A stretch of 49,126 nucleotides of DNA from Candidatus Omnitrophota bacterium (GTDB taxonomy: Bacteria > Omnitrophota > Gorgyraeia > JAFGHF01): contig JAZDHS010000034.1 of the NCBI GenBank assembly GCA_043805735.1, positions 1 to 49,126 of the forward strand. Direction: 5' to 3'. This document shows positions 26,857-42,136 of the stretch, in pieces. Under the pieces are notes generated by a model, which made no database searches, was not told where the DNA came from, and saw only the letters and a list, made by a program, of their open reading frames with translations. The position numbers were made by a program, and so were the translations under genes. Position 1 is the stretch's first letter, and every line of letters begins with the position of its first letter.

Positions 26857-27910
26857 AGTATTGCCCCAAGGCGATATTTAAATCGTTCGCCGCTTCTTTT
26901 TCATTGCTGAAAACGCGAAATCCCGCTTTTGCCAAAATGCCAAGCAGCCTATTTTTCAAAAAACTGTTCTGAAATACCCCACCGCTAAGCGCCACAACGC
27001 TGGCGCCACTTTCTTTACGCATTACCCTGGCTAAAGACAGAACGCTTTCGGTGAGCGTATTGTGAAATTTAGTAGCGATCAGGCGCAGGTTCTTCTTTTT
27101 TTGCCGATCCTTAAGCATCTCTATAAATACTGGTTCCGTATCCACGATCAGGCTGCCTTTTTCTTTAATCAGCGCAAACTCATAGCTTTCGCCGATGCCA
27201 GCATCGCAAAGTAATTCCAGCTTCCTTGGCCCCTCGGCTTCATAAGACGCATAAACACACAGGCCCAAAAGCGCGGCCACGGCGTCGAAGAGCCGGCCAA
27301 CGCTCGAACTTTCCGGCGAATTGATATTTTTGGCGAGCATCTGTGCTACCAGGTACCAGTTTTGCGGCTTTACTTCCGGCATTGCCGCCAAGGCCCGTTC
27401 GCCCAAAATACTTAACACCATTCTCCAGGGCTCAGTCGTAACCTTATCACCGCCGGGCATTTTCCAATACTTAAAATGGCCCCGGCGTTCATAACCGGCC
27501 TTGCTGACCAAAAGAAATTCCCCGCCCCAGGATTTACCGTCGGCGCCATAGCCTGTCCCATCAAAGGCTACACCGATTACCGGCTGTGTTATTTTATGCT
27601 CATGAATGACGCTGGCAATATGGGCGTGGTGGTGTTGAATAGGTAGTAGGTTGTAGGTAGTCCCCTTACGGGGAGGCTTCGCACTAGGTGAGAGTCCTTT
27701 GGCAAAAAGCGAAGAAAAATAATGCGGGTGCAGGTCATAGGCGATAATATCGGGCCTAGTTTTTTTTATCGCCGTTTCCACAGTTTTCCTAAATAAAGCG
27801 TAATTTTTGGCCTGGCTTAAATCGCCAATCTCCGGGCCAAAGGTAATCTTCTTACCATTGCCAATGAGGATACGGTTTTTAATATCTGCGCCTAAGGCAA
27901 TAATCTTCAT
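26828..27910 (-). CDS. hypF: Truncated HypF (Kae1-like carbamoyltransferase domain only)
   Basis: DLHP.Y, QHHHAH, DGTGYG.DG..WGGE, SSVGRLFD, LSGGVFQN; lacks the acylphosphatase, Zn-finger and YrdC domains. Confidence 0.88.
   Translation of the reverse strand: MKIIALGADIKNRILIGNGKKITFGPEIGDLSQAKNYALFRKTVETAIKKTRPDIIAYDLHPHYFSSLFAKGLSPSAKPPRKGTTYNLLPIQHHHAHIASVIHEHKITQPVIGVAFDGTGYGADGKSWGGEFLLVSKAGYERRGHFKYWKMPGGDKVTTEPWRMVLSILGERALAAMPEVKPQNWYLVAQMLAKNINSPESSSVGRLFDAVAALLGLCVYASYEAEGPRKLELLCDAGIGESYEFALIKEKGSLIVDTEPVFIEMLKDRQKKKNLRLIATKFHNTLTESVLSLARVMRKESGASVVALSGGVFQNSFLKNRLLGILAKAGFRVFSNEKEAANDLNIALGQYYVSGCSGKN
27640..27691. repeat. In-frame heptamer repeats plus mini-hairpin inside hypF
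   Basis: taggtag-taggttg-taggtag-[tcccc ttac gggga ggcttcgcac]-taggtga; encodes SPSAKPPRKGTTYNLLP. Confidence 0.65.
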
Positions 27911-28155
27911 TTTTCTTCGATATCAAACGAGAGGACTTCGATGCGGCAGCCGGGAAAGGAGGTAAACTCTAATTGGGCATGTTCTAAGGCAGTGCCTTTA
28001 GCTAAGAGCTTAAAGGTTTCACGGAAAGACTCTTCTTTTACACCGGTCAGCGTTCCGACCTTTAGCCGCACTTTCGAGACCGCGCGGCCTCCCTCTTTAC
28101 GGGCGTGCTCAGCGATGCCTTTAATAATCGGCTCAATTAAATGTGTTTCATGCAT
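27907..28155 (-). CDS. hypA: Short HypA lacking the Zn-finger domain
   Basis: MHE Ni motif, V.LKVG.LTGV..ESFR..F..L.KGT; no CxxC pairs. Confidence 0.85.
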   Translation of the reverse strand: MHETHLIEPIIKGIAEHARKEGGRAVSKVRLKVGTLTGVKEESFRETFKLLAKGTALEHAQLEFTSFPGCRIEVLSFDIEEK

Positions 28156-28618
28156 GGTCGACCTCGATAATCAGCGCGGCAATTTCTCCTAACGTTTTTT
28201 TAACTTGCCCGGACATTGCTGCACCTAGCTCCAGAGTTTGCGGCTGCACGCCTAAAACATAGAGCGCGATATTCGGCTTTTGCTTTTGCAGATACTCAAA
28301 GAACATGTGGAAAGAGATATCGTGTGTCCCCAGGCCACACTTGAGCAGTTCATCTTTGGACAACAGCGCATATTCACCGGCATCGCGCTCCAGATGCAGC
28401 GCGTCAACAATTAACACTGTGTCGGGATTTTCTTTGAGAATCTTTCCGGCAAAATTCTCTAAGGCGCTGCCGGAATCTAGGCAGACCGCTTTAACTTTGC
28501 CGTTAATGCGTTCGATCAGCGCTGGGCCAAAGCCATCATCGCCGCGTAAGATATTACCCACGCCGACAATTACAACTTTACCTTGGTAGATGTTTTTTAA
28601 AGCCGAGGGTTTAATCAT
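28148..28618 (-). CDS. hycI: Hydrogenase maturation endopeptidase (HycI-like)
   Basis: GVGNILRGDDGFG, PDTVLIVDA, THD, LGVQP. Confidence 0.88.
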   Translation of the reverse strand: MIKPSALKNIYQGKVVIVGVGNILRGDDGFGPALIERINGKVKAVCLDSGSALENFAGKILKENPDTVLIVDALHLERDAGEYALLSKDELLKCGLGTHDISFHMFFEYLQKQKPNIALYVLGVQPQTLELGAAMSGQVKKTLGEIAALIIEVDHA

Positions 28619-29229
28619 TATTTGGTTGTAAGAGTCGTTTCTCTCCTACAACGGGCGCAGAGAATTTTCACGCGGTCGGAGCGCCCTTTATCCTTTATCG
28701 CGGATATAATGTTTTCATCAATAATCCCTAAACTCTTTAGACGGGACAAGTAGAGGGTGGGGCTGGAATAGGCGAGTTCGCCGATTTTTTCGGCAATCCA
28801 TTTAAGATGGTCTTTACAGGCAATGGCACCGCCGCAAATTTCGCATAGTTCTAATTCTTTCTCGATGGTTTCAAAAGACTGCTTGCGGTCAAAGAATGAA
28901 AGTTCCCAATCATTGGAAAGCTTAATCCCTAAATGCTCGGCGATACAGGCGGCCTCGCATTGCCCGCAGAAAATACAGGTATCGGTATAATGGATCATCG
29001 TGCGTTTTGCGCTTATCTTCGTGTCGGTAGTATCCGAATGCGCAATCGCCTCTACCGGGCAGACCTGCTCACAGGCCAAACAGCCGACGCACTTTTGGTC
29101 ATTAAATTTCGGCTGGCCGCGGAAATTAGGATGCGGCACGTGAGGCTCTTTGGGAAACTTCGAAGTATAAGGGCCTTTGATCAACGCTTTTATGGCTTCA
29201 ATTAATTCTCTAATCTTTGGCAGCTTCAT
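28618..29229 (-). CDS. NuoI/MbhN-like 2x[4Fe-4S] subunit with extra C-terminal CxxC pairs
   Basis: GPYTSKFP, FRGQP, CVGCLACEQVCP, CIFCGQCEAAC, CEIC...CARC. Confidence 0.9.
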   Translation of the reverse strand: MKLPKIRELIEAIKALIKGPYTSKFPKEPHVPHPNFRGQPKFNDQKCVGCLACEQVCPVEAIAHSDTTDTKISAKRTMIHYTDTCIFCGQCEAACIAEHLGIKLSNDWELSFFDRKQSFETIEKELELCEICGGAIACKDHLKWIAEKIGELAYSSPTLYLSRLKSLGIIDENIISAIKDKGRSDRVKILCARCRRETTLTTK

Positions 29230-29237
29230 ACTATAAA

Positions 29238-29573
29238 CTAAATCTCCCCTTCTTTATCTTCGGCATACTTATCAATTACGCTTTTATCCCAAAGCTTCAC
29301 TCCCGCGCGGTGGGCGCCACGCGCCAAGGCATGTGCGGATACCGGGGCAGTCAATATTATAAACAGGATACAGAGAAGTGCCTTAATGCCGCAGGCATTA
29401 AATCCCTTAAACAAAAATAATCCCAACAAGATACTGCAGGTTCCCAGGGTAACGCTTTTTGTGGAGGCCTGCAGCCGGTTATAGACATCGGGCAAGCGGA
29501 TCAAACCTAAACAACCAAAAAAATCAAACAACAATCCGACCACTATAAAAAATAAGCCGATCGTCTCATTCAT
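29238..29573 (-). CDS. mnhG: Mrp antiporter subunit G
   Basis: GLIRLPDVYNRLQASTK, LTAPVSAHALARG; ATG at 29573. Confidence 0.92.
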   Translation of the reverse strand: MNETIGLFFIVVGLLFDFFGCLGLIRLPDVYNRLQASTKSVTLGTCSILLGLFLFKGFNACGIKALLCILFIILTAPVSAHALARGAHRAGVKLWDKSVIDKYAEDKEGEI

Positions 29574-29937
29574 CGAAGTTTCTTCCTTCCAGATACTTAG
29601 CCAATGCCAGGGTAGAAATAAAACTCTGCAATGCCCAGGCAATACCAATATCAATATACCAATCTCTGCCCGTAGGGATTCCTAATATCGCGCAGAAACC
29701 TAAAACCAAGATTCCTAAGATATCAATGGCTACGGCCCTATCCGCAGCAGTAGGCCCTTTTAAGATACGCCAGAGGCAGAATAACGCGCAGAAGAAAAGT
29801 ACAAAAAATACGCGTTTTAAAAGGCCGGATTGCCATTCTAATAAAGACGGCAGTGGGAAAAAAATAATCATCACGAAGACAACTATAATTGCCAACAATC
29901 CTGCTAACCAGCGCAATCTTCTCATAGTTCGACTCAT
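29566..29937 (-). CDS. mnhF: Mrp antiporter subunit F with an N-terminal extra helix
   Basis: RILKGPTAADRAVAID, FISTLALAKYL. Confidence 0.9.
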   Translation of the reverse strand: MSRTMRRLRWLAGLLAIIVVFVMIIFFPLPSLLEWQSGLLKRVFFVLFFCALFCLWRILKGPTAADRAVAIDILGILVLGFCAILGIPTGRDWYIDIGIAWALQSFISTLALAKYLEGRNFDE

Positions 29938-29938
29938 T

Positions 29939-30442
29939 TTACTCAAAAATCCTTTTTAAGACCTCTTCAAACACGCCGACAATCAGCTCCGAGGCTTTCT
30001 GGGTATCCTTTTCTCGGACATCAATCCAGTGGATGTACAAAACCCCTTTTTCCGGGTCGATATCTACAGTCATTGTGCCCGGGGTAAGGGTAATGGAATT
30101 TGCCAGAAAGGTTAAACCGGTATCTGACTTTAAAGTAGTCTTGACCTTAACAATACCCGGATTAATCGGTAAATCCGGATGGGTCACCCGATAAGCCACA
30201 TCAATATTTGCCTTTATACATTCCCAAATAAATAAAGGTACATAATAAAGGAACCATAGATAGCGATTGACCGACTTAAATACATACGGTCTTTTTACAA
30301 ACATGTCTCCGGTCATAAAAGAAACAAACATAGAGACGAAAATACCAATAATTAGATGCGCAGCGTCTGGCGGCCAGGTCAAAAGCATCCAAACTAAGAA
30401 GGCAAGGAGAAATAAAATAATGTGGCTTTTTTTCATTTTCAT
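29939..30442 (-). CDS. mnhE: Mrp antiporter subunit E
   Basis: ANIDVA, INPGIV, LANSITLTPGT, LYIHWID. Confidence 0.93.
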   Translation of the reverse strand: MKMKKSHIILFLLAFLVWMLLTWPPDAAHLIIGIFVSMFVSFMTGDMFVKRPYVFKSVNRYLWFLYYVPLFIWECIKANIDVAYRVTHPDLPINPGIVKVKTTLKSDTGLTFLANSITLTPGTMTVDIDPEKGVLYIHWIDVREKDTQKASELIVGVFEEVLKRIFE

Positions 30443-31926
30443 TTGATTGCCCCAAAAACTATTTCGGCGTAGCCTTTACCGGATAATAAAACATTAGTCG
30501 CTGATTCCAAAAAAGGCTTGAACGTCGGTGCAATTAATAAGCCGCTAACCACGCAAATAACCGCTAAGGCGATCATTGATAAGCACATTATGCCCGGGAC
30601 CTCTTTTATTCTTAGCCAACCGATATCAAGTTTTCCCAAAAAGGCAAAAGTTTGAAATTTTAAATAATAAGCTAGAGTAAGAATACTGACTAATATTGCG
30701 ATCAGTGCAAATCCGAAATATCTTGCTTCTACTGCCGCAATAATAATAATCAATTTACTAAAGAATCCGCCTAAAGGGGGAATGCCGGATATGCTCATTG
30801 AGCCCAGAAGGCTGGTATATCCTGTAACGGGTAGTTTGGAGTTTAGCCCACCTAATTTTCTTAAGTCGCGCGTTTGGACAGAGTATTCAATAGCGCCGGA
30901 GTTTAAGAAAAGTAGAGATTTAAAAACCGCATGATTAAACAGGTGAAATAATCCGCCCAAAATAGCTAAAGGGCTACCGATACCCAGGGCAAATATAATA
31001 AAGCCTATTTGGCTAATACTGGAATAAGCGAACATCCTTTTTATATCCTGTTGACCAATGGCTAAGAAGGCACCCACAACCATAGATATTACACCTAACA
31101 CTATTAAAACAAAAAGCATTTGACTCGAAACGCCCAGGATATTAAAAAAGACTCTAACCAAGGCATAGATACCCAATGTCTTAATAAACACTCCGGAAAG
31201 CATTGCCGATATCGGCGCGGGCGCAGAAGGATGGGCATCAGGAAGCCAGGCATGGAAAGGAACGAGGCTGGCCTTTAAACCGAAACCCATTAAAAACATT
31301 ACTGCCACAAGATTAACTATTAGGCCGTTTTGTTTTTGTGATAAGGTTAAAGAAATATCGGCCATGTTTAGTGAGGAGGTATAACTATATAAAAGAGCAA
31401 TCCCTAAAAGAATGAAGCTGGAAGCAACTGAGCCCATTACTGTATATTTAAAAGAGGCCTCTAATTCCTCGGCCCCGGTGCCAAAGGCAACCAGTGCATA
31501 ACTGGCAATCGAGGCGATCTCTAAAAAGACAAAAAGATTAAATAAATCCCCGGTGACGATTATACCGTTCATCCCCGCCACCATCAGCATAAATAAGGTA
31601 TAAAATTTAGGTTTAGCGGTATACCTTTCCATATATTTTATCGCATATAATGTTACAAAAAAGCTCACTAAATTTATCGTCACCAACATAAAAGAGGTCA
31701 GACCATCCAAAACCATACAGATCCCTATGGGCGGTATCCAAGCACCCACATTGTAGGTAATAATTTTATGAGCCAGAACTTCCCTAATGGAAAATAAGGA
31801 AAATATTAATAAACTAAATGTGCCCAAGTTAGCCAAGAGATCGGGAAGAATCTTTATCTTTTTTCCCAAAAGCGAAATCAGAAAGGCACATCCTAAAGGA
31901 ATAATCACAAAAACAGGCAAAATCAT
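30439..31926 (-). CDS. mnhD: Mrp antiporter subunit D / MbhH-like
   Basis: TGDLFNLFVFLEI, PFHAWLPDAHPSAP, AYSSISQIG, HAVFKSLLF, GIPPLGGF. Confidence 0.92.
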   Translation of the reverse strand: MILPVFVIIPLGCAFLISLLGKKIKILPDLLANLGTFSLLIFSLFSIREVLAHKIITYNVGAWIPPIGICMVLDGLTSFMLVTINLVSFFVTLYAIKYMERYTAKPKFYTLFMLMVAGMNGIIVTGDLFNLFVFLEIASIASYALVAFGTGAEELEASFKYTVMGSVASSFILLGIALLYSYTSSLNMADISLTLSQKQNGLIVNLVAVMFLMGFGLKASLVPFHAWLPDAHPSAPAPISAMLSGVFIKTLGIYALVRVFFNILGVSSQMLFVLIVLGVISMVVGAFLAIGQQDIKRMFAYSSISQIGFIIFALGIGSPLAILGGLFHLFNHAVFKSLLFLNSGAIEYSVQTRDLRKLGGLNSKLPVTGYTSLLGSMSISGIPPLGGFFSKLIIIIAAVEARYFGFALIAILVSILTLAYYLKFQTFAFLGKLDIGWLRIKEVPGIMCLSMIALAVICVVSGLLIAPTFKPFLESATNVLLSGKGYAEIVFGAIK

Positions 31927-32261
31927 CCTTTTAGTCTCCGGATTTCCGTAATATCAAAGGTACCATACTTTTCATAAATCCTTATGGCGATTGCAACAAC
32001 TAACGCCGTAACTGCCAGACCAATAACAATGGAGGTGAGCACTAAGGCTTGAGGCAGGGGATCGACCATATTTAAGATTGTCTGGTCCTGGGCTAATATC
32101 GGTGCTCGGCCATGCATACGATAACCGACCAGGACAAAAAATAAATTCACCGCATACTCAATTATCCCCAAGCCAATAATAATCTTAATAATATTTCTTT
32201 TTCTTAAGACGGCATAAAGGCCGATGCAAAATAAAATCAGACACAAAATATAGACACTCAT
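31923..32261 (-). CDS. mnhC: Mrp antiporter subunit C
   Basis: DPLPQALVLTSIVIGLA. Confidence 0.93.
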   Translation of the reverse strand: MSVYILCLILFCIGLYAVLRKRNIIKIIIGLGIIEYAVNLFFVLVGYRMHGRAPILAQDQTILNMVDPLPQALVLTSIVIGLAVTALVVAIAIRIYEKYGTFDITEIRRLKG

Positions 32262-32719
32262 TCTTCTTTTCCCGATCCTTGAAATAACACTAATACCGCA
32301 AAAATGGCAAATAGACCCGCTCCTACCTTAAGGCAGATCGCAATATTGCACAAGGGAATAATCCCGGCGCTAAATAAGTTGAAAGGCTTACCTTTACTTG
32401 AGAAGAAATTGAGAAAGAAATATCCGCCCGAAAAACCTAATAACGCAATAGATAAAAACATTAGCGCCCCGAGGTTCTCCAAAATTGAGGCCATACTTTG
32501 CGATAATTTTTTCAATGCTGTTTCTCTACCAAAGGCAAGCATCAGATGAATAAAAGAAAGGGCAATAATTACACCGCCGGCAAATCCTCCTCCGGGCGAA
32601 ATGTGTCCATGTAGAACAATATAGATACCGTAAAGAAGAATGAGCCCTACTGTAAGACGAGTGATCGTCTTGACAATCAAAGACATCCCCTTTTCCTGGC
32701 TTCTATTCATCCTGTTCAT
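32258..32719 (-). CDS. mnhB: MnhB-domain subunit
   Basis: HGHISPGGGFAGG. Confidence 0.9.
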   Translation of the reverse strand: MNRMNRSQEKGMSLIVKTITRLTVGLILLYGIYIVLHGHISPGGGFAGGVIIALSFIHLMLAFGRETALKKLSQSMASILENLGALMFLSIALLGFSGGYFFLNFFSSKGKPFNLFSAGIIPLCNIAICLKVGAGLFAIFAVLVLFQGSGKEE

Positions 32720-33260
32720 CTTCTTCTTTTACCTTCTCATCCACTTTCTTCTTGCCAATCCGGCGCGCAATGGTCAAAACCCCGATTACCGCGGTAAATA
32801 ATATCGTCGCCTCACCTAAGGTGTCATAGCCCCGGAAATCAAGAATAATAGCGCTAACCAGATTAGTTGCCCCGGTTTTAGCCAGGCCTTCTTCCAGATA
32901 GGTACTAGCTACTCTCATCGTGGGATAACCAAATTTAGGTAAATCTTTGAGACATTCTGTGGCAAAAATTAAAAATGCAGCGATAAAACCTATAGTAATA
33001 GCGGTATTCAAAAACCATCTTCCTGAAGTAGAAAATGGTAAGTCCTTTTTTATAGTCGCTCTGATTAAGATAATCAAAGCCAATATTTCTACCACCAGCT
33101 GGGTAATTGCTAAATCCGGCGCCTTCAGCAGCAAAAATGCGATTGAAAGCCCTAATCCCACAGCGCCTACGGCTATTACGGAAGAAAGCAAATCCTCCAC
33201 TTCTACCGCCACTATTGCTCCGGCAATCATAAATAGCAATAACAAATATAATTCAATCAT
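32703..33260 (-). CDS. DUF4040/MbhD-MbhE-like subunit
   Basis: APDLAITQLVVE, N.VSAIILDFRGYDTLGE. Confidence 0.88.
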   Translation of the reverse strand: MIELYLLLLFMIAGAIVAVEVEDLLSSVIAVGAVGLGLSIAFLLLKAPDLAITQLVVEILALIILIRATIKKDLPFSTSGRWFLNTAITIGFIAAFLIFATECLKDLPKFGYPTMRVASTYLEEGLAKTGATNLVSAIILDFRGYDTLGEATILFTAVIGVLTIARRIGKKKVDEKVKEEDEQDE

Positions 33261-33264
33261 CTGG

Positions 33265-34917
33265 CTACCTCAGCAAAATATAAAAAAGGATTCCCATACC
33301 TAAAAGACACCAAGCAAGATAAGTGGGAAGCACTCCGTTGTGCAAATAACGTAGCGCGCTGCTAAAGCCAAAGGTTATTTTTGTCCCCACTTCATAGATA
33401 TCGAAAAATTTATTTTTGGCTAAGTTGTACATCGCCCGCAAGAAACCGATATCTTGGATGGTATTATAAAATTCGGTTCCCGAAACTCGCATCTCCGGAT
33501 GGTCCTGCACGTTTTCCCCACAGAGAAAGATATCCGTTTCCCTGGCGCTTGAGGCCTTTCCATAAATAAGGATGAGTATGCCGATCACAATTCCCGCTAA
33601 CAAAAGCGCGGTCGCCAGGTTGGCGCTCCAAAGTCCGGAAAAAACCACTGTTTTTCCGATGCTCGGCAAAACAAAAAGCGCCAGGGGCAGTTTATAAGCA
33701 AATACGCCGAACAGAACGCACAGCGCGGCCAGAATTACTTGGGGAATCCACATCGCCGCCGGCGCCTCCTGGTTATCATTAACAGTGAAGCGCGACTCTT
33801 TGGACTGTTGGCCCAAAAATACGGCATGAATTAATTTCATAAAGCTGGCCAGTGTTAGGGCGCTGCCAAAGAGCGCGGCCACCAGCCAAATAATCCAAAG
33901 GTGCCCTCCATTTTTAGCGGTCTCAATCACGCCTTGATAAATCATCCATTTGGAGGCAAAGCCGTTAAAGGGCGGAACTCCCGATATCGCGCAGGAAGCA
34001 ATCAAAAAGGTGATAAAGGTAATCGGCATAATCCGGGCAAAGCCACCCAGCTTTTCTAAATCCGTAGTCTCGGCCTTTTGTTCTACCGCCCCTCCGGCAA
34101 GAAATAAACTCGTCTTATATATCGCATTATTCAACATATGAAATAATCCTCCGGCAATGCCGAGGGGATTTCCTGTGCCAATGCCTAGAACCATATATCC
34201 GACTTGGCTGACGGCATGATAACCTAACAACCGCTTCAGATCATGCTGAATGAGCGCCATCATCACAGCGGCAATAATAGTAAAACTTCCTATAGCCATC
34301 AAAAAGGTATTCATTGCCGCATCCAGCACAAACATCTCCACAGAAAGCCTAACCAGAAAATATATTCCTAAAAGTTTATCTAAGGAAGCCGGCAGGTAGG
34401 CGGTTACGGGAATCGGCGCATCTTCGGCGGTATCGGGAATCCAAGTATGCAGCGGCATTGCCCCGGCCTTGGCAAAAGCGCCCGCGGCCAGGCAGAGATA
34501 GGCCCATACTGCCGGTGTGCTGGTCAGCGGCAAGTGTATTTTATCCATATAGAGTGAGCTGGAAAGCCGCATAATAAAGGCAATGCCCAGCAGCATAAAT
34601 GCGTCTGTTCCGCCGATGATGATAAACGCCTTTTTGGCGGTCGCGGCGGTGCGTTCTTTGTCGCCAAAACCAATCAAGAGATAGAGCAAAAGACCCAAAA
34701 AGCCCCAGAAGGCGATAAATAACACTAGATGGTTGGCAAAGATCGCTCCTAAAGAAGCGATTAAGGTCAGAATAAGATAAAGGTAATACTGAACCAGATT
34801 CTTACGGCCGCGCATAAAAGCAAAAGAATATACGGTAATCAAGATAAAAAACACCACGACAAAGAGGCCAACAAAATTGGCTAAGGCGTCAAATCTAAGA
34901 TAAGGAGAATTTAACAT
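33265..34917 (-). CDS. NuoL/MrpA/HyfB-like antiporter subunit
   Basis: KAGAMPLHTWIP, KRLLGYHAVSQVGY, GVPPFNGFASKW. Confidence 0.9.
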   Translation of the reverse strand: MLNSPYLRFDALANFVGLFVVVFFILITVYSFAFMRGRKNLVQYYLYLILTLIASLGAIFANHLVLFIAFWGFLGLLLYLLIGFGDKERTAATAKKAFIIIGGTDAFMLLGIAFIMRLSSSLYMDKIHLPLTSTPAVWAYLCLAAGAFAKAGAMPLHTWIPDTAEDAPIPVTAYLPASLDKLLGIYFLVRLSVEMFVLDAAMNTFLMAIGSFTIIAAVMMALIQHDLKRLLGYHAVSQVGYMVLGIGTGNPLGIAGGLFHMLNNAIYKTSLFLAGGAVEQKAETTDLEKLGGFARIMPITFITFLIASCAISGVPPFNGFASKWMIYQGVIETAKNGGHLWIIWLVAALFGSALTLASFMKLIHAVFLGQQSKESRFTVNDNQEAPAAMWIPQVILAALCVLFGVFAYKLPLALFVLPSIGKTVVFSGLWSANLATALLLAGIVIGILILIYGKASSARETDIFLCGENVQDHPEMRVSGTEFYNTIQDIGFLRAMYNLAKNKFFDIYEVGTKITFGFSSALRYLHNGVLPTYLAWCLLGMGILFYILLR

Positions 34918-36092
34918 TTATATTTTTCCCGCAATTTTTCGGTCTTGGCCTGCGACAATTTTACTAAGTCTTCTCCACTATACACTTTTTTGCCCTTAGT
35001 GTCCAGCACGGCCATTCTTTCCGTGCAGCAATAGCAAGGGTCGATCGCCGCTAAAATTATCGTGGCATCGGAAATAGTCTCACCCACGACCGTAGCTTTA
35101 TAAGTCGGTAAATTCATAAATGTCGGCGCCCGCACTTTATGGCGCACCGGCCGGTTGGTGCCGTCGCTGCGCACATAATGGAAGCATTCACCGCGCGGCG
35201 CCTCAATATGGCCGATACCTTCTCCGGGCGGAATATCCTTAATATTTAAGTCTATCTCTCCTTTAGGTAAATTTTGCAAACAATGCTTGATTATCTTTAT
35301 CGACTCAAATGTCTCCAGTATCCTCACAACTGCCTTGTCAAAGACATCGCCGTTGTGTGTGACGATCATTTCCCATTCTACTTTATCATATGCTCCGTAA
35401 GGACAATCCTTGCGTAAATCCCGCGCCACTCCCGAGGCCCGGGAAGTAGGACCCAAGGCGCTATAATTTATGGCTTCTTCCTTAGTGAGAATCCCGATGC
35501 CTTTTGTGCGCGCATGCAGGACCGGATCATCAATCACGGCTTTTTTCAGCATCACACAGGTAGGAATAATCGAATCTATCTTTTTTAGTACCCCCGGGAT
35601 GTCTTCGGCTTTAATATCTCTTCTTACTCCGCCCGGTTTGAACATCGCATAATTATTTCTATTACCGGATAGAATCTCCATTACATCCAATATCTCTTCT
35701 CTTAATTTCCAAGCCCACATATAGACAGTATTATACCCCAAGAAATGCCCGGCCAGGCCCAGCCATAATAAATGCGAATGGATTCTCTCTCCTTCGGCAA
35801 TGATTGTCCTGATATATTTTGCTCTTTCGGGCACTTCAACAGGAATAATATCCTCCACCGCTCTGACGAACGCAAAGGGATGGCTGGTTGAACATATTCC
35901 GCAGATTCTCTCTACCAGAAATGTCGACTGGTCAAAGGTCTTCTTCTCGGAAAGTTTCTCAATTCCGCGATGATTATATCCAATCTGCACGTCAATCGCC
36001 ACTATCCTTTCACCCTCAACGGTCAGAGTAAAGAACTCCGGCTCTTCCTGCAGCGGATGATACGGCCCTATCGGTACTATCGTCTTTGCCAT
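34911..36092 (-). CDS. Group 4 [NiFe] hydrogenase large subunit
   Basis: IGPYHP..EEP, L1 ERICGICS, EAPRGE, L2 DPCYCCTER plus a cleavable C-terminal tail; all four metal Cys present. Confidence 0.93.
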   Translation of the reverse strand: MAKTIVPIGPYHPLQEEPEFFTLTVEGERIVAIDVQIGYNHRGIEKLSEKKTFDQSTFLVERICGICSTSHPFAFVRAVEDIIPVEVPERAKYIRTIIAEGERIHSHLLWLGLAGHFLGYNTVYMWAWKLREEILDVMEILSGNRNNYAMFKPGGVRRDIKAEDIPGVLKKIDSIIPTCVMLKKAVIDDPVLHARTKGIGILTKEEAINYSALGPTSRASGVARDLRKDCPYGAYDKVEWEMIVTHNGDVFDKAVVRILETFESIKIIKHCLQNLPKGEIDLNIKDIPPGEGIGHIEAPRGECFHYVRSDGTNRPVRHKVRAPTFMNLPTYKATVVGETISDATIILAAIDPCYCCTERMAVLDTKGKKVYSGEDLVKLSQAKTEKLREKYKC

Positions 36093-36566
36093 TTACACTC
36101 CCCGGTCTCTGATCGCGCCCTTATCCCATTCTTTATAATCCGAGCGCAGCGGATAAACACCCTTGGGCCATTCATCAGGAAGCAGTAACTTCTTCAGCTC
36201 CGGATGGCCTTTAAAGTTTATCCCCAACATCTCAAATAATTCCCGCTCGATCCAGTTAGCCGCTTCAAAATGCGGAGCAAGTGAATCAATCTCCGGCTTA
36301 GTCTTGGATAATTTTACGCGTAAAGAGATAACTAAGTTAATTTCTTCAATGGTGAAGTGATAGAGGATTTCGAAATGATGCCGCGTATCCATTCCCGAGG
36401 CGATATTGAAACGGGCGCCTAAGGTGCGGAACACATAGACCCCAAGCTTTACAATTGCCTCGGGCTTAATATCAATATACACCCGTTTGGGCGATTTATC
36501 CAAGACCTCAAGAATATCGGCTTTAAATTTTTCTCTTAAATCTTTTAAAACATCTTCTCGGCTCAT
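36093..36566 (-). CDS. NuoC/MbhK-like subunit
   Basis: ANWIERELFEMLGINFKGHP...YPLR. Confidence 0.92.
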   Translation of the reverse strand: MSREDVLKDLREKFKADILEVLDKSPKRVYIDIKPEAIVKLGVYVFRTLGARFNIASGMDTRHHFEILYHFTIEEINLVISLRVKLSKTKPEIDSLAPHFEAANWIERELFEMLGINFKGHPELKKLLLPDEWPKGVYPLRSDYKEWDKGAIRDRGV

Positions 36567-36988
36567 GCCTTACTCTTCACTTTCTCGATCAGTTTCACTA
36601 CTCCAGCAATAATCGCCTCCGGCTTTGGGGGGCATCCCGGAATATACACGTCCACCGGAATAATTTTATCTAACGGCAGCGGGCAGTTGTAACTATGAAT
36701 AAACATGCCTCTAGAGAGCGAACATTCCCCGATTGCCACTACCAGGCAGGGCTTAGGAGTCTGCTCGTAAAGTTTCTTCAGCTTGGCCGCGGATTTACGG
36801 TTGCAGGAACCGGTAACCAGAAGCACGTCAGCGTGCTTAATACTCCCGACTAAAAGCATACCGAACCGCTCGATATCAAAGCGCGGCGTCAGACAATCGA
36901 GGATCTCGATGTCGCAATTATTGCAGCTTCCCGTGGAGAGGTGAAACACCCACGGAGATTTTAACAACGCCTGCAGCTTCATGCTCAT
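36563..36988 (-). CDS. Hydrogenase small subunit (NuoB/MbhJ-like)
   Basis: GSCNNCDIE, FDIERFG, GEC, PGCPP. Confidence 0.93.
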   Translation of the reverse strand: MSMKLQALLKSPWVFHLSTGSCNNCDIEILDCLTPRFDIERFGMLLVGSIKHADVLLVTGSCNRKSAAKLKKLYEQTPKPCLVVAIGECSLSRGMFIHSYNCPLPLDKIIPVDVYIPGCPPKPEAIIAGVVKLIEKVKSKA

Positions 36989-36993
36989 TTTGG

Positions 36994-37917
36994 TTAATAT
37001 CCCTTAAGCGCTAATGCCACCGCGATGATGGCAAGAATAGTCATTGGCCCCCAGAAAAAGCGCACCGCCTGGTCAATACGCACGCGGGGATTGGTATTAC
37101 GAATTACGGTAATGATGGCGACAACTCCCACATATTTTAGAATTCCGTTCACCAGGTGCATTCCGTCTAAGCGTATGCCGCCCATAAACAGGATAATTAA
37201 AAAGAAGGGCAGCACAAATAATAACATATTTTTCATTAACCGGTAGACGGCCAGTCCGGAACCGGAATATTCAATCAGCGGCCCCGAGACTATTTCGGTC
37301 TCGGCCTCAGGCATATCAAAGGGAACCAGCGCCAACTTGGCCTGCATACACATAATCGCCACTACCAGCGCCAACGCCCCCGAAATATTACTGACCATTA
37401 CGCCGGCTTGAGCCTGGTAAGCTAAAATGCCTCCGAGCGTAATCGAAAAACCGGACTTGATTACCGGAACCAGTATCGCTAAGACAAACGGCAGCTCATA
37501 ACTTAAAATGAGCTTCATCTCCCTTGAGGCACCCAGGCTAGCCAGAGGATTTTTCGAAGCAAACCCGCCCAGAATAATACTGATTGAAGGAATAGTCAAA
37601 AGATAAAGCACGACAATCACGTCACCGATAAAGCTCTGTCTGGTATCGAGATTATTCATCCAGAGCAGGGTCGAGACTAATACTACGCTGGCAAACCCTA
37701 TCACCGGCGCCATCAAAAATGTGCCTCGGGAAGCACCCCTGGGAATAAGCGTTTCTTTACCTAAGAGCTTGATAATATCAATCAGAGGCTGTAACAGCGG
37801 TGGGCCCACCCGGTATTGCACACGGGCAGTGACCTTACGGTCAATCCAACTGCCGAGAAGCCCGATAACCACGGTCAACAAAAACCCGTAAACTAAAAGA
37901 TATCCGATATAATTCAT
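36994..37917 (-). CDS. NuoH/MbhM-like membrane anchor
   Basis: ARVQYRVGPPLLQP..D..KLLGKE, PFDMPEAETE. Confidence 0.93.
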   Translation of the reverse strand: MNYIGYLLVYGFLLTVVIGLLGSWIDRKVTARVQYRVGPPLLQPLIDIIKLLGKETLIPRGASRGTFLMAPVIGFASVVLVSTLLWMNNLDTRQSFIGDVIVVLYLLTIPSISIILGGFASKNPLASLGASREMKLILSYELPFVLAILVPVIKSGFSITLGGILAYQAQAGVMVSNISGALALVVAIMCMQAKLALVPFDMPEAETEIVSGPLIEYSGSGLAVYRLMKNMLLFVLPFFLIILFMGGIRLDGMHLVNGILKYVGVVAIITVIRNTNPRVRIDQAVRFFWGPMTILAIIAVALALKGY

Positions 37918-38495
37918 GCCTCTTCCCTATTCCAATGCGTCGAATGCACGATAATGTTGTCGCCGACCAGAAAAGTATTATCATCCAAATCCGTATCAGC
38001 CGGTTTCAAAGTAAGCGCCCCATAGGGGCAACTGCTGACGCATAAAGGCTGGTGCTTTTCCTCCCAGCGGTCCAGACAAAAATCGCAATTGTGAATTAGT
38101 AAAGGCACTAATTCCGGATAAATCGTGCCGTAAGGACAAGCGTGCGCGCAGGAGCGGCAGCTGATACAGCGCATATTATGCCTAATGAGCAATTTGTTTT
38201 TCTCTTTTTGTTGCTCCAACGCATCTACCGGACAGGAATTAACGCAATGCGCCTCCTCACAGCGGCGGCAGACCAGCGCATAATTAGCCAATTCGGCGCA
38301 GGAAAGAATCCCATTATTGCCGCTATCGTTATCTTTACTATCCTGCTGATGGTAGAAATAACTGCATTTAATCACGCACTGTTTGCACTCGCCGGCAGCG
38401 CAAATATCCAAGTCAATAAACAGGCGTTTATCCTTGCCCTTTTTTGGGGCGAGATTAAGTTTTCCCTGATGCAGTTGTTCGGCGCTTAAGCCCAT
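37914..38495 (-). CDS. Multi-[4Fe-4S] ferredoxin-like subunit
   Basis: CRRCEEAHCVNSCP, CISCRSCAHACP, CDFC...CVSSCP. Confidence 0.85.
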   Translation of the reverse strand: MGLSAEQLHQGKLNLAPKKGKDKRLFIDLDICAAGECKQCVIKCSYFYHQQDSKDNDSGNNGILSCAELANYALVCRRCEEAHCVNSCPVDALEQQKEKNKLLIRHNMRCISCRSCAHACPYGTIYPELVPLLIHNCDFCLDRWEEKHQPLCVSSCPYGALTLKPADTDLDDNTFLVGDNIIVHSTHWNREEA

Positions 38496-38499
38496 TTTA

Positions 38500-39327
38500 T
38501 CAATACCAGATGTTGGAGAACGTTTTTATTTGCGAATAAAGAAATACCGGGCCGTCTTTACAGGCATAATAAATCCCCAGGCGGCAATGTCCGCATTTAC
38601 CCAAGCCGCAGGACATATTCTTTTCCATCGAAAGATAAATATTATTTTCGGCGAAGCCCATCTCTAAAATCTTTAAGGTAGCGAATTTCATCATAATCGG
38701 CGGCCCGCAGACTATCGCCACGCCGATTTTATAATCCATATCCACATCGCCTAATATAGTCGTCACCAGGCCGACATGGCCTTTCCAGGTTTCATCGCCT
38801 TTATCAACAGTCAGCTTGATATTGAGGTCTTTGCGTTGGAACCAGGTTTCGGTTTCGTTTTTATAGACCATCTCCTCAGGTGAGCGGCATCCACCGCGGA
38901 AGAATAACTTTTTAAATTCACCGGAGCGGTCAAATAAGGCATACATCAAACTGCGCAAGGGGGCGAACCCGCAGCCACCGCCGACCACTAAAATTTCTTT
39001 CCCGCGAAACTCGTCCAAGGGGTAACCCCGGCCAAATGGGCCACGCACGCCGATCGTATCGCCTTTTTTGAGCTGGTGCACATATTCAGTCACCCGGCCG
39101 ACCTTCATTACCGTAACTTCCATTATATCTTTTACCGCCGGCCGGGAAGATGGGGTAAACGGCGCTTCCCCTACTCCGGGAATGGTAATTTCCACGAACT
39201 GTCCGGTAGCAAAGCTAATTTGCTCTTTCGGCTGAAAGCGGATAGTCTTAATCGATGGGGTTTCTGGGATTACCTCCAGCACCTCGGCTTCAATTGGCCG
39301 ATAGGGATTTTTACAATCAGGCATCAC
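38500..39327 (-). CDS. FAD/NAD(P)-binding [2Fe-2S] subunit (AsrB/HydG/FlxA-like)
   Basis: GEAPF, RGPFGRG, GGGCGFAPLRS, CGPPIMM, MSCGLGKCGHC...CKDGP. Confidence 0.9.
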   Translation of the reverse strand: MMPDCKNPYRPIEAEVLEVIPETPSIKTIRFQPKEQISFATGQFVEITIPGVGEAPFTPSSRPAVKDIMEVTVMKVGRVTEYVHQLKKGDTIGVRGPFGRGYPLDEFRGKEILVVGGGCGFAPLRSLMYALFDRSGEFKKLFFRGGCRSPEEMVYKNETETWFQRKDLNIKLTVDKGDETWKGHVGLVTTILGDVDMDYKIGVAIVCGPPIMMKFATLKILEMGFAENNIYLSMEKNMSCGLGKCGHCRLGIYYACKDGPVFLYSQIKTFSNIWY

Positions 39328-40345
39328 TCACCAGCTTCTTTAGCACCCGGCGGATATCAATCTTGGCCGGACAAGCCGAAATACAACGCCCGCAGCCGGT
39401 GCAGGCATAGACATTGGCCACTTTAGGAAAGAAATCAAATTTCTTCTCAAAACGGTTGCGTAGGCGCATCCACAATTTTTCCCGCGGGTTGGCACCACCG
39501 GCCACCCGGGCAAAATCCTTAATCAGGCAGGAATCCCAAATCCGCAGGCGGCTGATCCGTTTTTGGTCTTTCTGGTCATATAACAGAAAACAGTGGCAGG
39601 TCGGGCAAATCGTATTACAGGCCCCGCATTCAACACAGGTTTTGGCCTCCTCCTGCCAAAGCCCCGCTTCATACTTTTTCTCGATCGTGCCTTTATAAAA
39701 ATCCTGATGCGGCACTTCATATTTTTGCAGATTTTCTTCTACTTCTTCGATAACGCGCTTTCTCTGCGCGTCGCGCTCGGAAATGGCAGTGAGATCGGCC
39801 GCCGAAAACAGCGCCGAGTGTTTGCTTAGAATGGCCGCGCCCTTTGGCGAGCCGGATTCCACTAAGAATCCACCTCTTACCGAAGAGAGATTGAGGTCAA
39901 AGGCCTCTTGAGGATGGGGCTTGACGCCTAAGGCCAGGCAAAAACAGGTGGCAATAGCGCAGGTGCAGTCCGCGGCGATAATCAAATTGTTTTGGCGCGC
40001 CTGGGCGTAGAAAGGATCCTGGTAATCATGGTCCTGAAAAACAAAATCCTGAATCTTGAAACCCTTAAGATCACAGGCCTTAACCCCGACAATGGCAAAG
40101 GGTTTGGCCGGGGCGTAAGGAACGCTGTCCTTAAAGCCTTCGGCGACTATTTCCCGCGCCCGGCTAAAAAAAGCCTTCAGCGGCTCAAATGGCCGGACCT
40201 CGCCAACCACAATATCCTTGATATCCACGCTGTATGGCGCGTAAAAACGCTGTTCGCCTTTTTTGACCGGTACATATACCGCGTAATCGCGGGAGAGCGC
40301 GTCAAGAAATGCGTTAAAGTCTTTCTGGGAAAGAAAATGGGCCAT
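39317..40345 (-). CDS. 4Fe-4S dicluster subunit (AsrA/HydB/FlxB-like)
   Basis: GVKACDL, CFC, CVECGACNTICPTCHCF, WDSC, CTGCGRCISACP. Confidence 0.9.
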   Translation of the reverse strand: MAHFLSQKDFNAFLDALSRDYAVYVPVKKGEQRFYAPYSVDIKDIVVGEVRPFEPLKAFFSRAREIVAEGFKDSVPYAPAKPFAIVGVKACDLKGFKIQDFVFQDHDYQDPFYAQARQNNLIIAADCTCAIATCFCLALGVKPHPQEAFDLNLSSVRGGFLVESGSPKGAAILSKHSALFSAADLTAISERDAQRKRVIEEVEENLQKYEVPHQDFYKGTIEKKYEAGLWQEEAKTCVECGACNTICPTCHCFLLYDQKDQKRISRLRIWDSCLIKDFARVAGGANPREKLWMRLRNRFEKKFDFFPKVANVYACTGCGRCISACPAKIDIRRVLKKLVSDA

Positions 40346-40346
40346 G

Positions 40347-40988
40347 TTAAGCGAAGATCGCCTTTTTGTTCACTAAAAAGTAAGGAAGGGTTTCCAATTC
40401 CCGCGATAAGTCCACGGCTTTTACCTTGACCTGTTCCGGCGCGTTAATCGCGGTAGGGGCAAAATTCAACAGGCATTCAATGCCGGCAGAGATTAAGATG
40501 TCGGCGACTCCTTGCGCTTCTTTAGCCGGAACAGCAATAATCGCAATCGTAATCTTTTTTTCGGCAACAGCGCGCGGCAGCTCTTCGATCGACTGTACCG
40601 TAACTTCCTTCAGTTGCTTGCCGATTTTACGGCTATCGGCATCAAAGGCGGCCACGATATGCAAGCCGCGTTCTTTAAATCCCGGATAGGTTAACAGGGC
40701 CGAACCTAAATGCCCCGCCCCCACTACCGCTACATTCCAGGTTTTGTCTCTTCCTAGTATCTTCTCTAACGCCACTTTGAGTTCAGTGGTGTTATAACCG
40801 GCCCCGCTCACCCCGAATTGGCCGAAATAGCCTAAATCTTTGCGCACCTGGGCGTCGCTTAAGTTAATCCGCTCCCCTAATTCGGCGGAAGAAATCGTGT
40901 GGATATTGATTTTGACCAATTCCGTAATTTCTCTTAAGTAAACTACCAGGCGGGAAATAACCGCTTCGGGAACTTTTTTATTGCTCAT
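40347..40988 (-). CDS. rex: Redox-sensing repressor Rex
   Basis: ISSAELG, QVRKDLGYFGQFG...GY, GAGHLG, LNFAP. Confidence 0.96.
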   Translation of the reverse strand: MSNKKVPEAVISRLVVYLREITELVKINIHTISSAELGERINLSDAQVRKDLGYFGQFGVSGAGYNTTELKVALEKILGRDKTWNVAVVGAGHLGSALLTYPGFKERGLHIVAAFDADSRKIGKQLKEVTVQSIEELPRAVAEKKITIAIIAVPAKEAQGVADILISAGIECLLNFAPTAINAPEQVKVKAVDLSRELETLPYFLVNKKAIFA

Positions 40989-40998
40989 TGGCTCAACT

Positions 40999-41037
40999 TC
41001 GTAATGTTATTCACAGAGTTTGTGCTAATTTTCACAA
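40999..41037. promoter_or_regulatory. Tandem Rex operators
   Basis: TTGTGCTAATTTTCACAA (41020-37, 12/14 match to TTGTGAAnnnnTTCACAA) and TCGTAATGTTATTCACAG (40999-41016, 10/14). Confidence 0.82.
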
Positions 41038-41066
41038 AGTATAACAAATAAAAAAGTCACTGTCAA
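41038..41066 (-). promoter_or_regulatory. Sigma70 promoter of the rex-hydrogenase operon
   Basis: TTGACA-17-TATACT with TGn extension, immediately followed by the Rex box. Confidence 0.82.
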
Positions 41067-42136
41067 GAAAAAACTTTGTTAATCGTTCCTCCACCCACCA
41101 CGCAATCGCCCTGATACATTACTGCCGCCTGGCCCGGCGTTACCGCCCACTGCGGCTGGTCAAAACAGATCCGGACCGCCTTTTTGCCTTCAGCAAAGAC
41201 GGTAGCGCTGGCTACCTGATGTTGATAACGCACCCGCACCTTGACCCGCAAACGCGCAGGACATTCCTTTATATATATAAAGTTCAGCTGGTTGGCAACT
41301 AAGCCCGCGGCATAGACCTCGTCCTTGCTGCCCACTATAATTGTATTGTTTTTCTTTTCTATCGCCGCAACATATAACGGCTCTTTATAGGCAATGCCGA
41401 TACCCTTGCGCTGCCCGATAGTGTAAAAGGCTATTCCCTGGTGCCGGCCGATTACCTGGCCTTCCCTATTAACAATTGGCCCGGGCTGTACTGTTTTCGG
41501 ACTGTGCTGGCGTAAAAATCTCCCATAATCATTATCGGGGATAAAGCAAATTTCCTGCGACCCGGGTTTATCGGCAACCGGCAGGCCTTTCTTTTTAGCA
41601 ATGCCTCTCACCTGCTGTTTAGTCAGCTCTCCTAACGGCATCAAAATTCGGCGTAATTGCGCCTGGGAAAGGGCATACAAGAAATAAGACTGATCCTTGT
41701 GGCTATCCCGGCCTTTTTTGAGCACAAAGCGTTTACTGCGCTGATTTAACTGGACACGGGCATAATGGCCGGTAGCGACATAGTCGGCATCTAACTGCCG
41801 CGCGCGCTTAAGCAGGGCATCAAACTTGATATATTGATTACAGCGCACGCAAGGATTGGGCGTGCGGCCACGGGAATATTCGGCGCAGAAAGGCGAGATT
41901 ATTTTTTCTTGAAAGACCTGCTTAAAATTAAGCACATAATGCGGTATCTTTAATAGGCGCGCTACCCGCCGGGCATCCTCAATACCGCTTAAGCCGCAAC
42001 AGCTGCCGGAGGCATCCGGTTGCCAGATTTGCATCGTCACGCCGACAACATCATAGCCCTGATCTTTTAACAGTGCCGCCGCAACGGAGGAATCCACCCC
42101 TCCGCTCATCGCTACGATAACTCTTTTCTTACCCAT
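41063..42136 (-). CDS. mnmA: tRNA 2-thiouridylase
   Basis: AMSGGVDSS, TPNPC..CN, ATGHYA, KDQSYFL, SQEICF, YTIGQR, TPGQ. Confidence 0.97.
   Translation of the reverse strand: MGKKRVIVAMSGGVDSSVAAALLKDQGYDVVGVTMQIWQPDASGSCCGLSGIEDARRVARLLKIPHYVLNFKQVFQEKIISPFCAEYSRGRTPNPCVRCNQYIKFDALLKRARQLDADYVATGHYARVQLNQRSKRFVLKKGRDSHKDQSYFLYALSQAQLRRILMPLGELTKQQVRGIAKKKGLPVADKPGSQEICFIPDNDYGRFLRQHSPKTVQPGPIVNREGQVIGRHQGIAFYTIGQRKGIGIAYKEPLYVAAIEKKNNTIIVGSKDEVYAAGLVANQLNFIYIKECPARLRVKVRVRYQHQVASATVFAEGKKAVRICFDQPQWAVTPGQAAVMYQGDCVVGGGTINKVFS

Follow-up and report, generated by a model that had tools for sequence, protein, structure and literature searches.

A complete Hun-type [NiFe] hydrogenase–antiporter operon in an Omnitrophota genome, with a candidate NAD(P)H input module and a predicted Rex operator

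Gene organization of the hun operon

The DNA analyzed here, referred to below as the window, is contig JAZDHS010000034.1 (C34) of Candidatus Omnitrophota bacterium (assembly GCA_043805735.1) over its whole length of 49 kb (49,126 nucleotides), and coordinates are window positions unless another locus is named. The genome comprises 1.31 Mb in 61 contigs and is rated 96.7% complete with 0.58% contamination. On the minus strand, the window carries an operon for a group 4 [NiFe] hydrogenase linked to Mrp-type antiporter subunits and preceded by rex, which extends from a promoter at 41066 to the maturation gene hycI at 28148 and continues into hyp genes down to 24636. The accessible text of a preprint describes Hun as a 16-subunit hydrogenase–Na+/H+ antiporter supercomplex encoded by hunA–P (Glass et al., bioRxiv 10.1101/536078, 2021), and the window locus is a complete, intact Hun-type operon and a further member of this described family. 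The hun letters used here follow the order of the genes, consistent with the modules listed in that preprint.

The gene list, order, and coordinates from rex to the NuoI-like gene given in a preliminary description of this DNA were confirmed by open reading frames (ORFs), Pfam, and NCBIfam; all of the genes lie on the minus strand. The redox-sensing repressor gene rex (40347–40988) matched Put_DNA-bind_N and CoA_binding of Pfam and NCBIfam NF003995 (263.5 bits; cut-off, 126). It is followed by hunA (39317–40345; Fer4_22), encoding a HydB/AsrA-like Fe-S subunit, hunB (38500–39327; FAD_binding_6, NAD_binding_1, and DHODB_Fe-S_bind), encoding a HydG/AsrB-like subunit for flavin adenine dinucleotide (FAD), reduced nicotinamide adenine dinucleotide (phosphate) (NAD(P)H), and [2Fe-2S], and hunC (37914–38495; Fer4_11), encoding a CooF/HycB-type polyferredoxin with four Cys motifs. 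The following genes encode a NuoH/MbhM-like membrane subunit (hunD, 36994–37917; PF00146, 3.8e-66), a NuoB-like hydrogenase small subunit (hunE, 36563–36988; PF01058), a NuoC-like subunit (hunF, 36093–36566; PF00329), and the group 4 [NiFe] large subunit (hunG, 34911–36092; PF00346 and PF00374). The next eight genes encode a NuoL/MrpA-N-like antiporter subunit (hunH, 33265–34917; PF00361), MbhD plus MbhE, corresponding to the C-terminal part of MrpA (hunI, 32703–33260; PF13244 and PF20501), MnhB (hunJ, 32258–32719; PF04039), an MnhC/NuoK-like protein (hunK, 31923–32261; PF00420), MnhD, a second antiporter-like subunit (hunL, 30439–31926; PF00361 and PF00662), MnhE (hunM, 29939–30442; PF01899), MnhF (hunN, 29566–29946; PF04066 at residues 68–120), and MnhG (hunO, 29238–29654; PF03334 at residues 36–115). 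The listed TTG starts of hunN and hunO are probably too far upstream. The last structural gene, hunP (28618–29229; Fer4 families), encodes a HycF/NuoI-like 2×[4Fe-4S] subunit with a Cys-bearing C-terminal extension.

The large subunit proved intact, as previously described, with both metal motifs present (L1, RICGICSTSH; L2, DPCYCCTER), and it has a 34-residue C-terminal extension of the type cleaved by HycI-type proteases. Its best solved relative was 6cfw_L (MbhL; 1.3e-90), and HycE matched at 7.9e-82. The best solved relative of HunP was 7z0s_F (HycF; 4.6e-18), ahead of MbhN (6cfw_N; 1e-10).

The operon had been placed at 28618–41066. The genes in this range are as described, but the unit runs on through hycI and hypA, hypF, hypC, hypD, and hypE to 24636. 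From rex to hypE (40988 to 24636), the largest intergenic gap is 8 nucleotides, and most genes overlap by 1–17 nucleotides. The hycI-type maturation endopeptidase gene (28148–28618, minus strand) matched PF01750 and scored 94.8 bits on TIGR00142, below its cut-off of 119.1, and 95.8 bits on TIGR00072, above its cut-off of 47.45. The hyp genes (24636–28155, minus strand) matched Pfam HypA, HypF_C, HypF_C_2, HupF_HypC, HypD, AIRS, and AIRS_C. HypA, encoded in the 26828–28155 region, has only 82 amino acids covering profile positions 1–68 of 112, and HypF consists only of the C-terminal Kae1-like half (360 amino acids); the HypF zinc-finger domain zf-HYPF was not found anywhere in the genome. The nearest relatives share these short forms (for example, loci L001–L004, L009, and L019), while other Hun loci encode full-length HypF of about 750–800 amino acids.

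Conservation of the operon and of its AsrAB-like pair

With the large subunit as query, HMMER retrieved 9824 relatives among cluster representatives, 901 of them at E ≤ 1e-30. One genome per species was scanned with an alignment of eight close sequences, which gave 596 relatives, and the best 80 loci (57–90% identity) were kept. Gene order in these loci, surveyed by BLAST of all their ORFs against the 18 proteins of the window, was nearly the same throughout. As deposited, the loci carry the labels of more than 20 differently labeled lineages, including Omnitrophota, Fermentibacteria, Nitrospirota, Nitrospinaceae, Elusimicrobiota/Endomicrobia, Margulisiibacteriota, Bacteroidales, WOR-3, Caldiserica, Kiritimatiellia, Latescibacterota, Stahlbacteria, Eisenbacteria, and others. 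The recurrence of the same order in so many lineages indicates that the arrangement did not arise by chance.

In 66 loci the available sequence extends 2 kb or more upstream of the cooF-like gene, and in 64 of these an asrA-like and an asrB-like gene directly precede it, the exceptions being L064 and L080; 63 of the 64 were counted by script, and L058, which a coordinate filter had missed, was added by inspection. All nine Mrp/NuoI genes were found in 46 of the 51 loci with at least 7.5 kb of downstream DNA (44 by script, plus L003 and L058, whose nuoL was listed by BLAST), and L017, L018, L066, L078, and L080 lack some or all of them. The CYCC motif of HunG is present in 75 of the 80 relatives, four have CYSC, and one sequence is truncated. 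The AsrA-like protein is 65–73% identical to its best 120 homologues, which, where named, are labeled Candidatus Omnitrophota, Omnitrophica, or plain "bacterium".

The distribution of the genes was also examined in 151 Omnitrophota genomes. HunG-type genes (at least 65% identity) were found in 25 genomes, and HunA-type genes (at least 37% identity, E ≤ 1e-75) in 24, all within these 25. In the single HunG-bearing genome lacking HunA (G004), the contig stops 126 bp upstream of hunB, and no HunA-type gene was found in the other 126 Omnitrophota genomes. In about 20 genomes of the set, the only AsrA/HydB-like genes are 26–35% identical, and several of these genomes have no group 4 match; the genes presumably belong to soluble group 3b enzymes. 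The assignment of the AsrAB-like pair to the hydrogenase in the preliminary description is thus borne out by synteny (64/66 loci) and co-occurrence (24/24 HunA genomes also have HunG), and the pair is an integral, conserved part of the hydrogenase.

Several loci depart from the common arrangement. In L011, L017, L078, and L018, a NuoI-like gene directly follows the large subunit gene, and the Mrp genes are missing downstream or, as in L011, lie upstream on the opposite strand. Between hunB and hunC, three loci have an ORF of about 550–580 amino acids with weak matches to molybdopterin-family Pfam entries (L040, 1980–3725; L056, 5918–7579; L065, 6074–7726). ORFs of similar size in L066 (5728–7443) and L064 (5777–7432) had no Pfam match at 1e-8, and the L064 copy is present without hunAB. 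The position and ancestry of the molybdopterin-oxidoreductase-like insert recall NuoG of complex I. In the Nitrospirota-labeled locus L031 (3384–6856), three ORFs of 153, 668, and 310 amino acids, without a Pfam match at 1e-8, lie between hunB and hunC.

Sequence features of HunA, HunB, and HunC

The best solved relatives of HunA and HunB were the beta and gamma subunits of sulfhydrogenase 1 of Pyrococcus furiosus (9nez_B, 5e-43, and 9nez_C, 1.7e-55, respectively), and the cluster cysteines and nucleotide motifs of HunA and HunB align with those of the two subunits. The next relatives of HunB were PyrK and NqrF, both of which are pyridine-nucleotide flavoproteins. Solved relatives of HunC include 8c0z_C and HycB3/HycB4 of 7qv7. 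On the equivalog models, HunA scored 129.3 bits against the AsrA cut-off of 323 and HunB 229.5 bits against the AsrB cut-off of 288.6, and the scores on the NCBIfam equivalogs of sulfhydrogenase beta (174 against a cut-off of 690) and gamma (181 against 650) were far below the cut-offs.

HunB was aligned with 57 orthologues picked by ORF-length filters from loci with both genes. Across these 58 sequences, there is little or no variation in the motifs P56-F57-x-x-S60-S61, G117-G118-x-G120-x-A-P123-x-R125, and C-G208-P209-P-x-M212 or in the four [2Fe-2S] cysteines. The HunA alignment has 15 invariant or nearly invariant Cys residues in three groups, and the HunC alignment keeps its four cluster motifs. 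A complex prediction for HunA, HunB, and HunC, which used the three alignments and took HunC as the partner, gave a score of 0.01 and a mark of 0.32, which counts neither for nor against their association. The conserved FAD, NAD, and [2Fe-2S] motifs and the kinship with sulfhydrogenase beta and gamma uphold the NAD(P)H input module of the preliminary description as a candidate; the NAD(P)H:H2 activity and ion coupling that it attached to this module were overstated.

Promoter and predicted Rex operator

A sigma-70-like promoter, TTGACA-17-TATACT with TG ahead of the second hexamer, was found at 41038–41066 on the minus strand; it has 11 of 12 matches and is the top promoter-like site in 24000–43500. 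Directly after its -10 hexamer and 31 nucleotides before the rex ATG lies a Rex-box-like palindrome, TTGTGAAAATTAGCACAA (41020–41037, minus strand), with two mismatches to the 18-bp Rex operator consensus TTGTGAANNNNTTCACAA quoted in the accessible part of PMC6391272. The window contains four sites with up to three mismatches to the consensus compared with 2.2 expected, so that the number of Rex sites in the window means little alone. Of five sites with up to two mismatches in the whole genome, only that at 41020–41037 keeps both the TGTG and CACA cores.

The 80 related loci (1.34 Mb) contain 30 Rex-like sites with up to two mismatches. Eighteen of the 30 fall between -300 and +20 relative to the leading gene of the operon and are spread over 15 of the 62 loci that could be judged, and Rex boxes are thus strongly enriched upstream of Hun operons. 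Such sites near the operon start also occur in loci without an adjacent rex, and a rex gene adjoins the operon on the same strand in nine loci and is divergent in three. Transcription would start from a strong promoter, with the predicted Rex operator lying over its -10/+1 region, and the operon, including rex, would be derepressed as NADH/NAD+ rises. Derepression at high NADH would favor an H2-evolving, NADH-relieving valve for surplus reducing equivalents.

Other redox enzymes in the genome

Neither a second [NiFe] large subunit nor a second HunA was found in the 96.7%-complete genome, and no protein scored above the AsrC cut-off. Searches of the genome assembly also did not find MvhD, an [FeFe] hydrogenase, Rnf/Nqr membrane subunits, or a NuoF/RnfC/HydB-type flavoprotein (no PF01512). 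Nor was a molybdopterin enzyme found in the genome (no PF00384), and hence no formate dehydrogenase. An Asr-like pair apart from the hydrogenase, or with an Hdr or AsrC partner encoded elsewhere, had been named in the preliminary description as evidence against its reading; with AsrC above cut-off, MvhD, and a second [NiFe] enzyme all missing from the genome search, neither arrangement was observed.

The genome has a POR-type oxidoreductase, the glutamate synthase genes gltB-gltD, pyrK-pyrD, and ATP synthase c subunits. An Nfn pair was considered and rejected, as the sole GltD-like gene lies beside gltB and the sole AsrB paralogue is pyrK beside pyrD. The C6 copy of the ATP synthase c subunit contains FAEAIAV, a motif that we take to lack the Ser or Thr of Na+-binding sites; as the genome encodes another c subunit as well, no conclusion on Na+ use was drawn. 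Hun is the only hydrogenase and the only recognizable redox-driven ion machine found in the genome, an observation to which we give little weight. Rnf-family genes are present in 17 of the 25 Hun-bearing Omnitrophota genomes, including the nearest sampled relative (G141; same family, single contig), and the idea that Hun generally substitutes for Rnf was accordingly rejected.

Comparison with known systems

The architecture is already in print, as Hun (10.1101/536078) and as an asrA/asrB/cooF module (PMC6349859), and is therefore less novel than the preliminary description would suggest. As far as the accessible text of the preprint shows, Hun is known from Atribacteria, Firmicutes, Omnitrophica, Elusimicrobia, Bacteroidetes, and Kosmotoga isolates, its first two subunits resemble AsrA and AsrB, HunG is assigned to "group 4g" by HydDB yet is distant from other 4g sequences, the signature is CGIC-CYCC, and in part of the genomes a gene with a molybdopterin domain separates hunB from hunC (10.1101/536078). 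The window operon matches Hun in all 16 genes and in their order (AsrA-like, AsrB-like, Fe-S, NuoH, NuoB, NuoC, [NiFe] large subunit, Mrp, and NuoI-like), its HunG carries the CGIC (L1) and CYCC (L2) signature, and AsrC is absent from it, all as in the accessible description; the optional molybdopterin-domain gene is also present in relatives surveyed here. Among the open literature searched, the name Hun is used only in this preprint.

The available part of a 2019 study described an "enigmatic" Mrp-Mbh-type group 4 hydrogenase of Saganbacteria RX5A with a cooF-, asrA-, and asrB-like "oxidoreductase module" that "may play similar roles" to nuoE/nuoF; its donor was left unknown, and its nearest relatives were in Omnitrophica and Zixibacteria (Matheus Carnevali et al. 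2019, PMC6349859). As described there, the RX5A locus has an unclassifiable molybdopterin protein, whereas the window operon has none. In surveys of Omnitrophota, the enzyme appears under "group 4g Mbh, Mrp-linked" and is treated as ferredoxin-type (PMC8542988; PMC10066038), and the same ferredoxin-type "group 4g Mbh" listing was used for Auribacterota (PMC9324843).

Similar to the P. furiosus MBH (6CFW), whose MbhL is the closest solved large subunit, the window enzyme has NuoH-, NuoB-, NuoC-, and NuoI-like subunits and Mrp-type membrane subunits. HunABC are absent from MBH, so that the window operon has three extra conserved genes, and it encodes two antiporter-like subunits. MBH, which we take to be HydDB group 4d, has a single antiporter-like subunit. 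HunP is nearer to HycF than to MbhN. With the Escherichia coli formate hydrogenlyase (7Z0S) and the Mrp-linked formate- or carbon monoxide (CO)-respiring hydrogenases, the window enzyme shares a design in which a HycB/CooF-type polyferredoxin connects a soluble input enzyme with a HycF-like subunit, but its input is a flavoprotein/Fe-S pair, with no formate or CO dehydrogenase in the operon. In contrast to the CO-respiring type, cooS of the window (9913–11823) lies in a separate cluster with its own cooF. The closeness of HunP to HycF suggests that the wiring resembles that of formate hydrogenlyase, with the flavoprotein pair in the place of formate dehydrogenase.

Unlike their counterparts in the soluble sulfhydrogenase I of P. 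furiosus (9NEZ), which is presumably a group 3b enzyme, HunA and HunB go with a membrane-bound group 4 hydrogenase, without the group 3 alpha and delta subunits; the sole large subunit in the genome is of the group 4 type, not group 3. The module differs from AsrABC in that no AsrC above cut-off was found in the genome and HunA and HunB fall below the AsrA and AsrB equivalog cut-offs. Complex I offers an analogy only: both have an NAD(P)H flavoprotein module (a candidate one in Hun), an Fe-S chain, a NuoB/C/D/H/I core, and antiporter-like subunits, but the window operon lacks NuoE, NuoF, and NuoG, its NuoD homologue keeps the Ni-Fe ligands, and no quinone is implied.

Electron donor and proposed mechanism

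We lean toward a role of the HunA-HunB-HunC input in making the complex interconvert NAD(P)H + H+ and NAD(P)+ + H2 in an ion-coupled and Rex-controlled manner. HunB would take electrons from NAD(P)H through FAD and [2Fe-2S] and pass them to the clusters of HunA and then to the four clusters of the polyferredoxin HunC. From HunC, the electrons would flow through the HycF-like HunP and the NuoB-like HunE to the Ni-Fe site of HunG. In the Mrp/NuoH arm, ion influx would drive H2 evolution, or ions would be pumped out when H2 reduces NAD(P)+. We infer the substrate NAD(P)H, the electron path, the ion coupling, the direction, and the regulation, and the Wood-Ljungdahl neighbors of the operon would fit H2 uptake equally well.

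NAD(P)H is, with modest confidence, the best-supported donor as judged from the protein and promoter sequences, and it differs from the ferredoxin assumed in the accessible literature. The NAD and FAD motifs, the kinship with sulfhydrogenase beta and gamma, and the Rex operator point to NAD(P)H, whereas the accessible text of the Hun preprint predicts ferredoxin as the donor and mentions neither Rex nor FAD (10.1101/536078). This prediction is one of several points that weigh against NAD(P)H. Biochemical or expression data for any Hun enzyme were not found in the accessible literature, nor were sequencing runs found that cover 34000–41100 of the window. Residue 148 of HunB is basic in all 58 sequences (R in 32, K in 26) and is followed by T or S in 49; it follows the second strand of the NAD domain and aligns with an Arg of sulfhydrogenase gamma. 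By what we take to be the rules of the FNR family, a basic residue at this position hints at NADPH, which Rex presumably does not sense. It is possible that residue 148 is a determinant for the 2'-phosphate of NADPH, at odds with control by the NADH sensor Rex. The standard potentials are -320 mV for NAD(P)H and -414 mV for H2, and H2 formation from NAD(P)H costs about 18 kJ/mol under standard conditions; this uphill reaction could proceed only if H2 were very low or if ions flowed in through the Mrp/NuoH arm. The occurrence of Rnf in 17 of the 25 Hun-bearing genomes means that genome context cannot tell NADH from ferredoxin, and the absence of Rnf from the present genome may be an assembly gap, as the relative G141 has Rnf. 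Furthermore, in Caldicellulosiruptor bescii, according to the accessible part of PMC6391272, Rex also represses a ferredoxin-dependent [NiFe] hydrogenase, an [FeFe] hydrogenase, and PFOR, and the predicted operator is therefore weak evidence for NADH as the substrate. Rex control, which the preliminary description took to fit NADH, thus stands as a predicted operator at the promoter that is enriched in relatives; its use to tell donors apart does not, as the C. bescii case shows.

Rex control of ferredoxin-dependent hydrogenases is also among the points in favor of a ferredoxin-dependent Hun, in which HunABC would be an Fe-S wire from reduced ferredoxin, H2 evolution would pump ions as in Pyrococcus MBH, and the NAD/FAD site of HunB would be structural, regulatory, or a side entrance. 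The large subunit has the ferredoxin-dependent MbhL as its closest solved relative, the POR-type oxidoreductase and CODH/ACS of the genome make reduced ferredoxin, and ferredoxin is the donor both in the accessible text of the Hun preprint and, by assumption, in the Omnitrophota surveys (PMC8542988, PMC10066038). We nevertheless consider this explanation rather unlikely, because MBH accepts ferredoxin without such a module, yet 64 of 66 loci retain the three additional subunits. FAD/NAD motifs that are invariant in 58 of 58 sequences would be hard to explain for an unused site, and all characterized relatives of HunB that scored (sulfhydrogenase gamma, PyrK, and NqrF) are pyridine-nucleotide enzymes. 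Both carriers could be served at once if HunC or HunP accepted reduced ferredoxin while HunB accepted NAD(P)H. The complex would then be a hydrogenase and an ion-coupled ferredoxin:NAD(P)+ oxidoreductase, in which the exergonic ferredoxin branch would, via the gradient or the shared membrane arm, pay for the evolution of H2 from NAD(P)H, as a chemiosmotic counterpart of electron-confurcating [FeFe] hydrogenases. Such a three-way hub would suit a genome in which Rnf/Nqr, a NuoF/RnfC/HydB-type flavoprotein, an [FeFe] hydrogenase, and Nfn were not found at 96.7% completeness, in which Hun is the only recognizable link between H2, NAD(P)H, and the membrane, and in which the adjoining Wood-Ljungdahl genes need both carriers. 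It is improbable in our view, given the Rnf genes of 17 of the 25 Hun-bearing Omnitrophota, G141 included, and the possible gap in the present assembly. The window moreover encodes, in its Wood-Ljungdahl cluster on the minus strand, an FAD/NAD oxidoreductase (8086–9402), CooF (9399–9911), and CooS/AcsA (9913–11823), a trio (8086–11823) that could be a second ferredoxin/NAD(P) link, and no ferredoxin docking site is evident in Hun.

A service of HunA and HunB to a sulfur or sulfite reductase, either through a siroheme partner encoded elsewhere or by sulfhydrogenase-type sulfur reduction, is very improbable. The scores of HunB and HunA on the AsrB and AsrA models (229.5 and 129.3 bits) could be taken to suggest it, but both are below the equivalog cut-offs. 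A siroheme-type NIR_SIR protein is encoded on contig C44, but it reached only 76.5 bits against the AsrC cut-off of 324, as the best match in the genome, and its gene lies apart from the operon, beside genes for an aminotransferase and archease. HunA-type genes, in addition, were found only in genomes with HunG and next to it.

Extending the NAD(P)H reading, we tentatively propose, at somewhat lower confidence, that Hun is a reversible ion-coupled NAD(P)H:H+ oxidoreductase that would spend the Na+/H+ gradient on H2 when Rex reports a reduced NAD pool and would conserve energy in the reverse direction. Where Rnf is present, Rnf would pump ions on electron transfer from ferredoxin to NAD+ and Hun would spend the gradient on that from NADH to H2, which would make up a chemiosmotic "confurcation" circuit. 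In small genomes without detected Rnf, Nfn, or [FeFe] hydrogenase, such as the present one, Hun would be the sole redox-driven ion machine serving the Wood-Ljungdahl pathway. It might also be a living analogue of the complex I ancestor with an independently acquired NAD(P)H module.

To our knowledge, the energy-converting hydrogenases characterized so far take electrons from ferredoxin, formate, or CO. A literature search, which covered papers outside subscription, found no report of an NAD(P)H-dependent Mrp-type [NiFe] hydrogenase, and Hun, if it runs on NAD(P)H, would be a type of energy-converting hydrogenase not yet demonstrated biochemically and would add a new coupling site to respiration or fermentation. 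It would account for the disposal of NADH as H2 in many uncultured anaerobes without electron-bifurcating [FeFe] hydrogenases, and would alter the metabolic reconstructions of Omnitrophota, Atribacteria, Bacteroidales, and others, in which the enzyme is now a ferredoxin-dependent "group 4g Mbh". The value lies in the class; what the window copy adds is mainly a clean and full-length instance that has rex and Wood-Ljungdahl genes next to it.

Neighboring genes and minor observations

The Wood-Ljungdahl cluster occupies 3–17235 on the minus strand and comprises acsD, cooC, RACo, acsC, acsB, the FAD/NAD oxidoreductase gene, cooF, cooS/acsA, cooC, folD, metF, fchA, and fhs. The NIR_SIR protein on C44 (L083, 1492–2205) consists of 237 amino acids without a ferredoxin insert and is encoded by the only sulfite-reductase-like gene found in the genome. 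Throughout the window (1–49126), nearly all long ORFs are on the minus strand and the guanine-cytosine (GC) skew is negative in each 2-kb bin, which fits a single replichore with a strong gene-strand bias.

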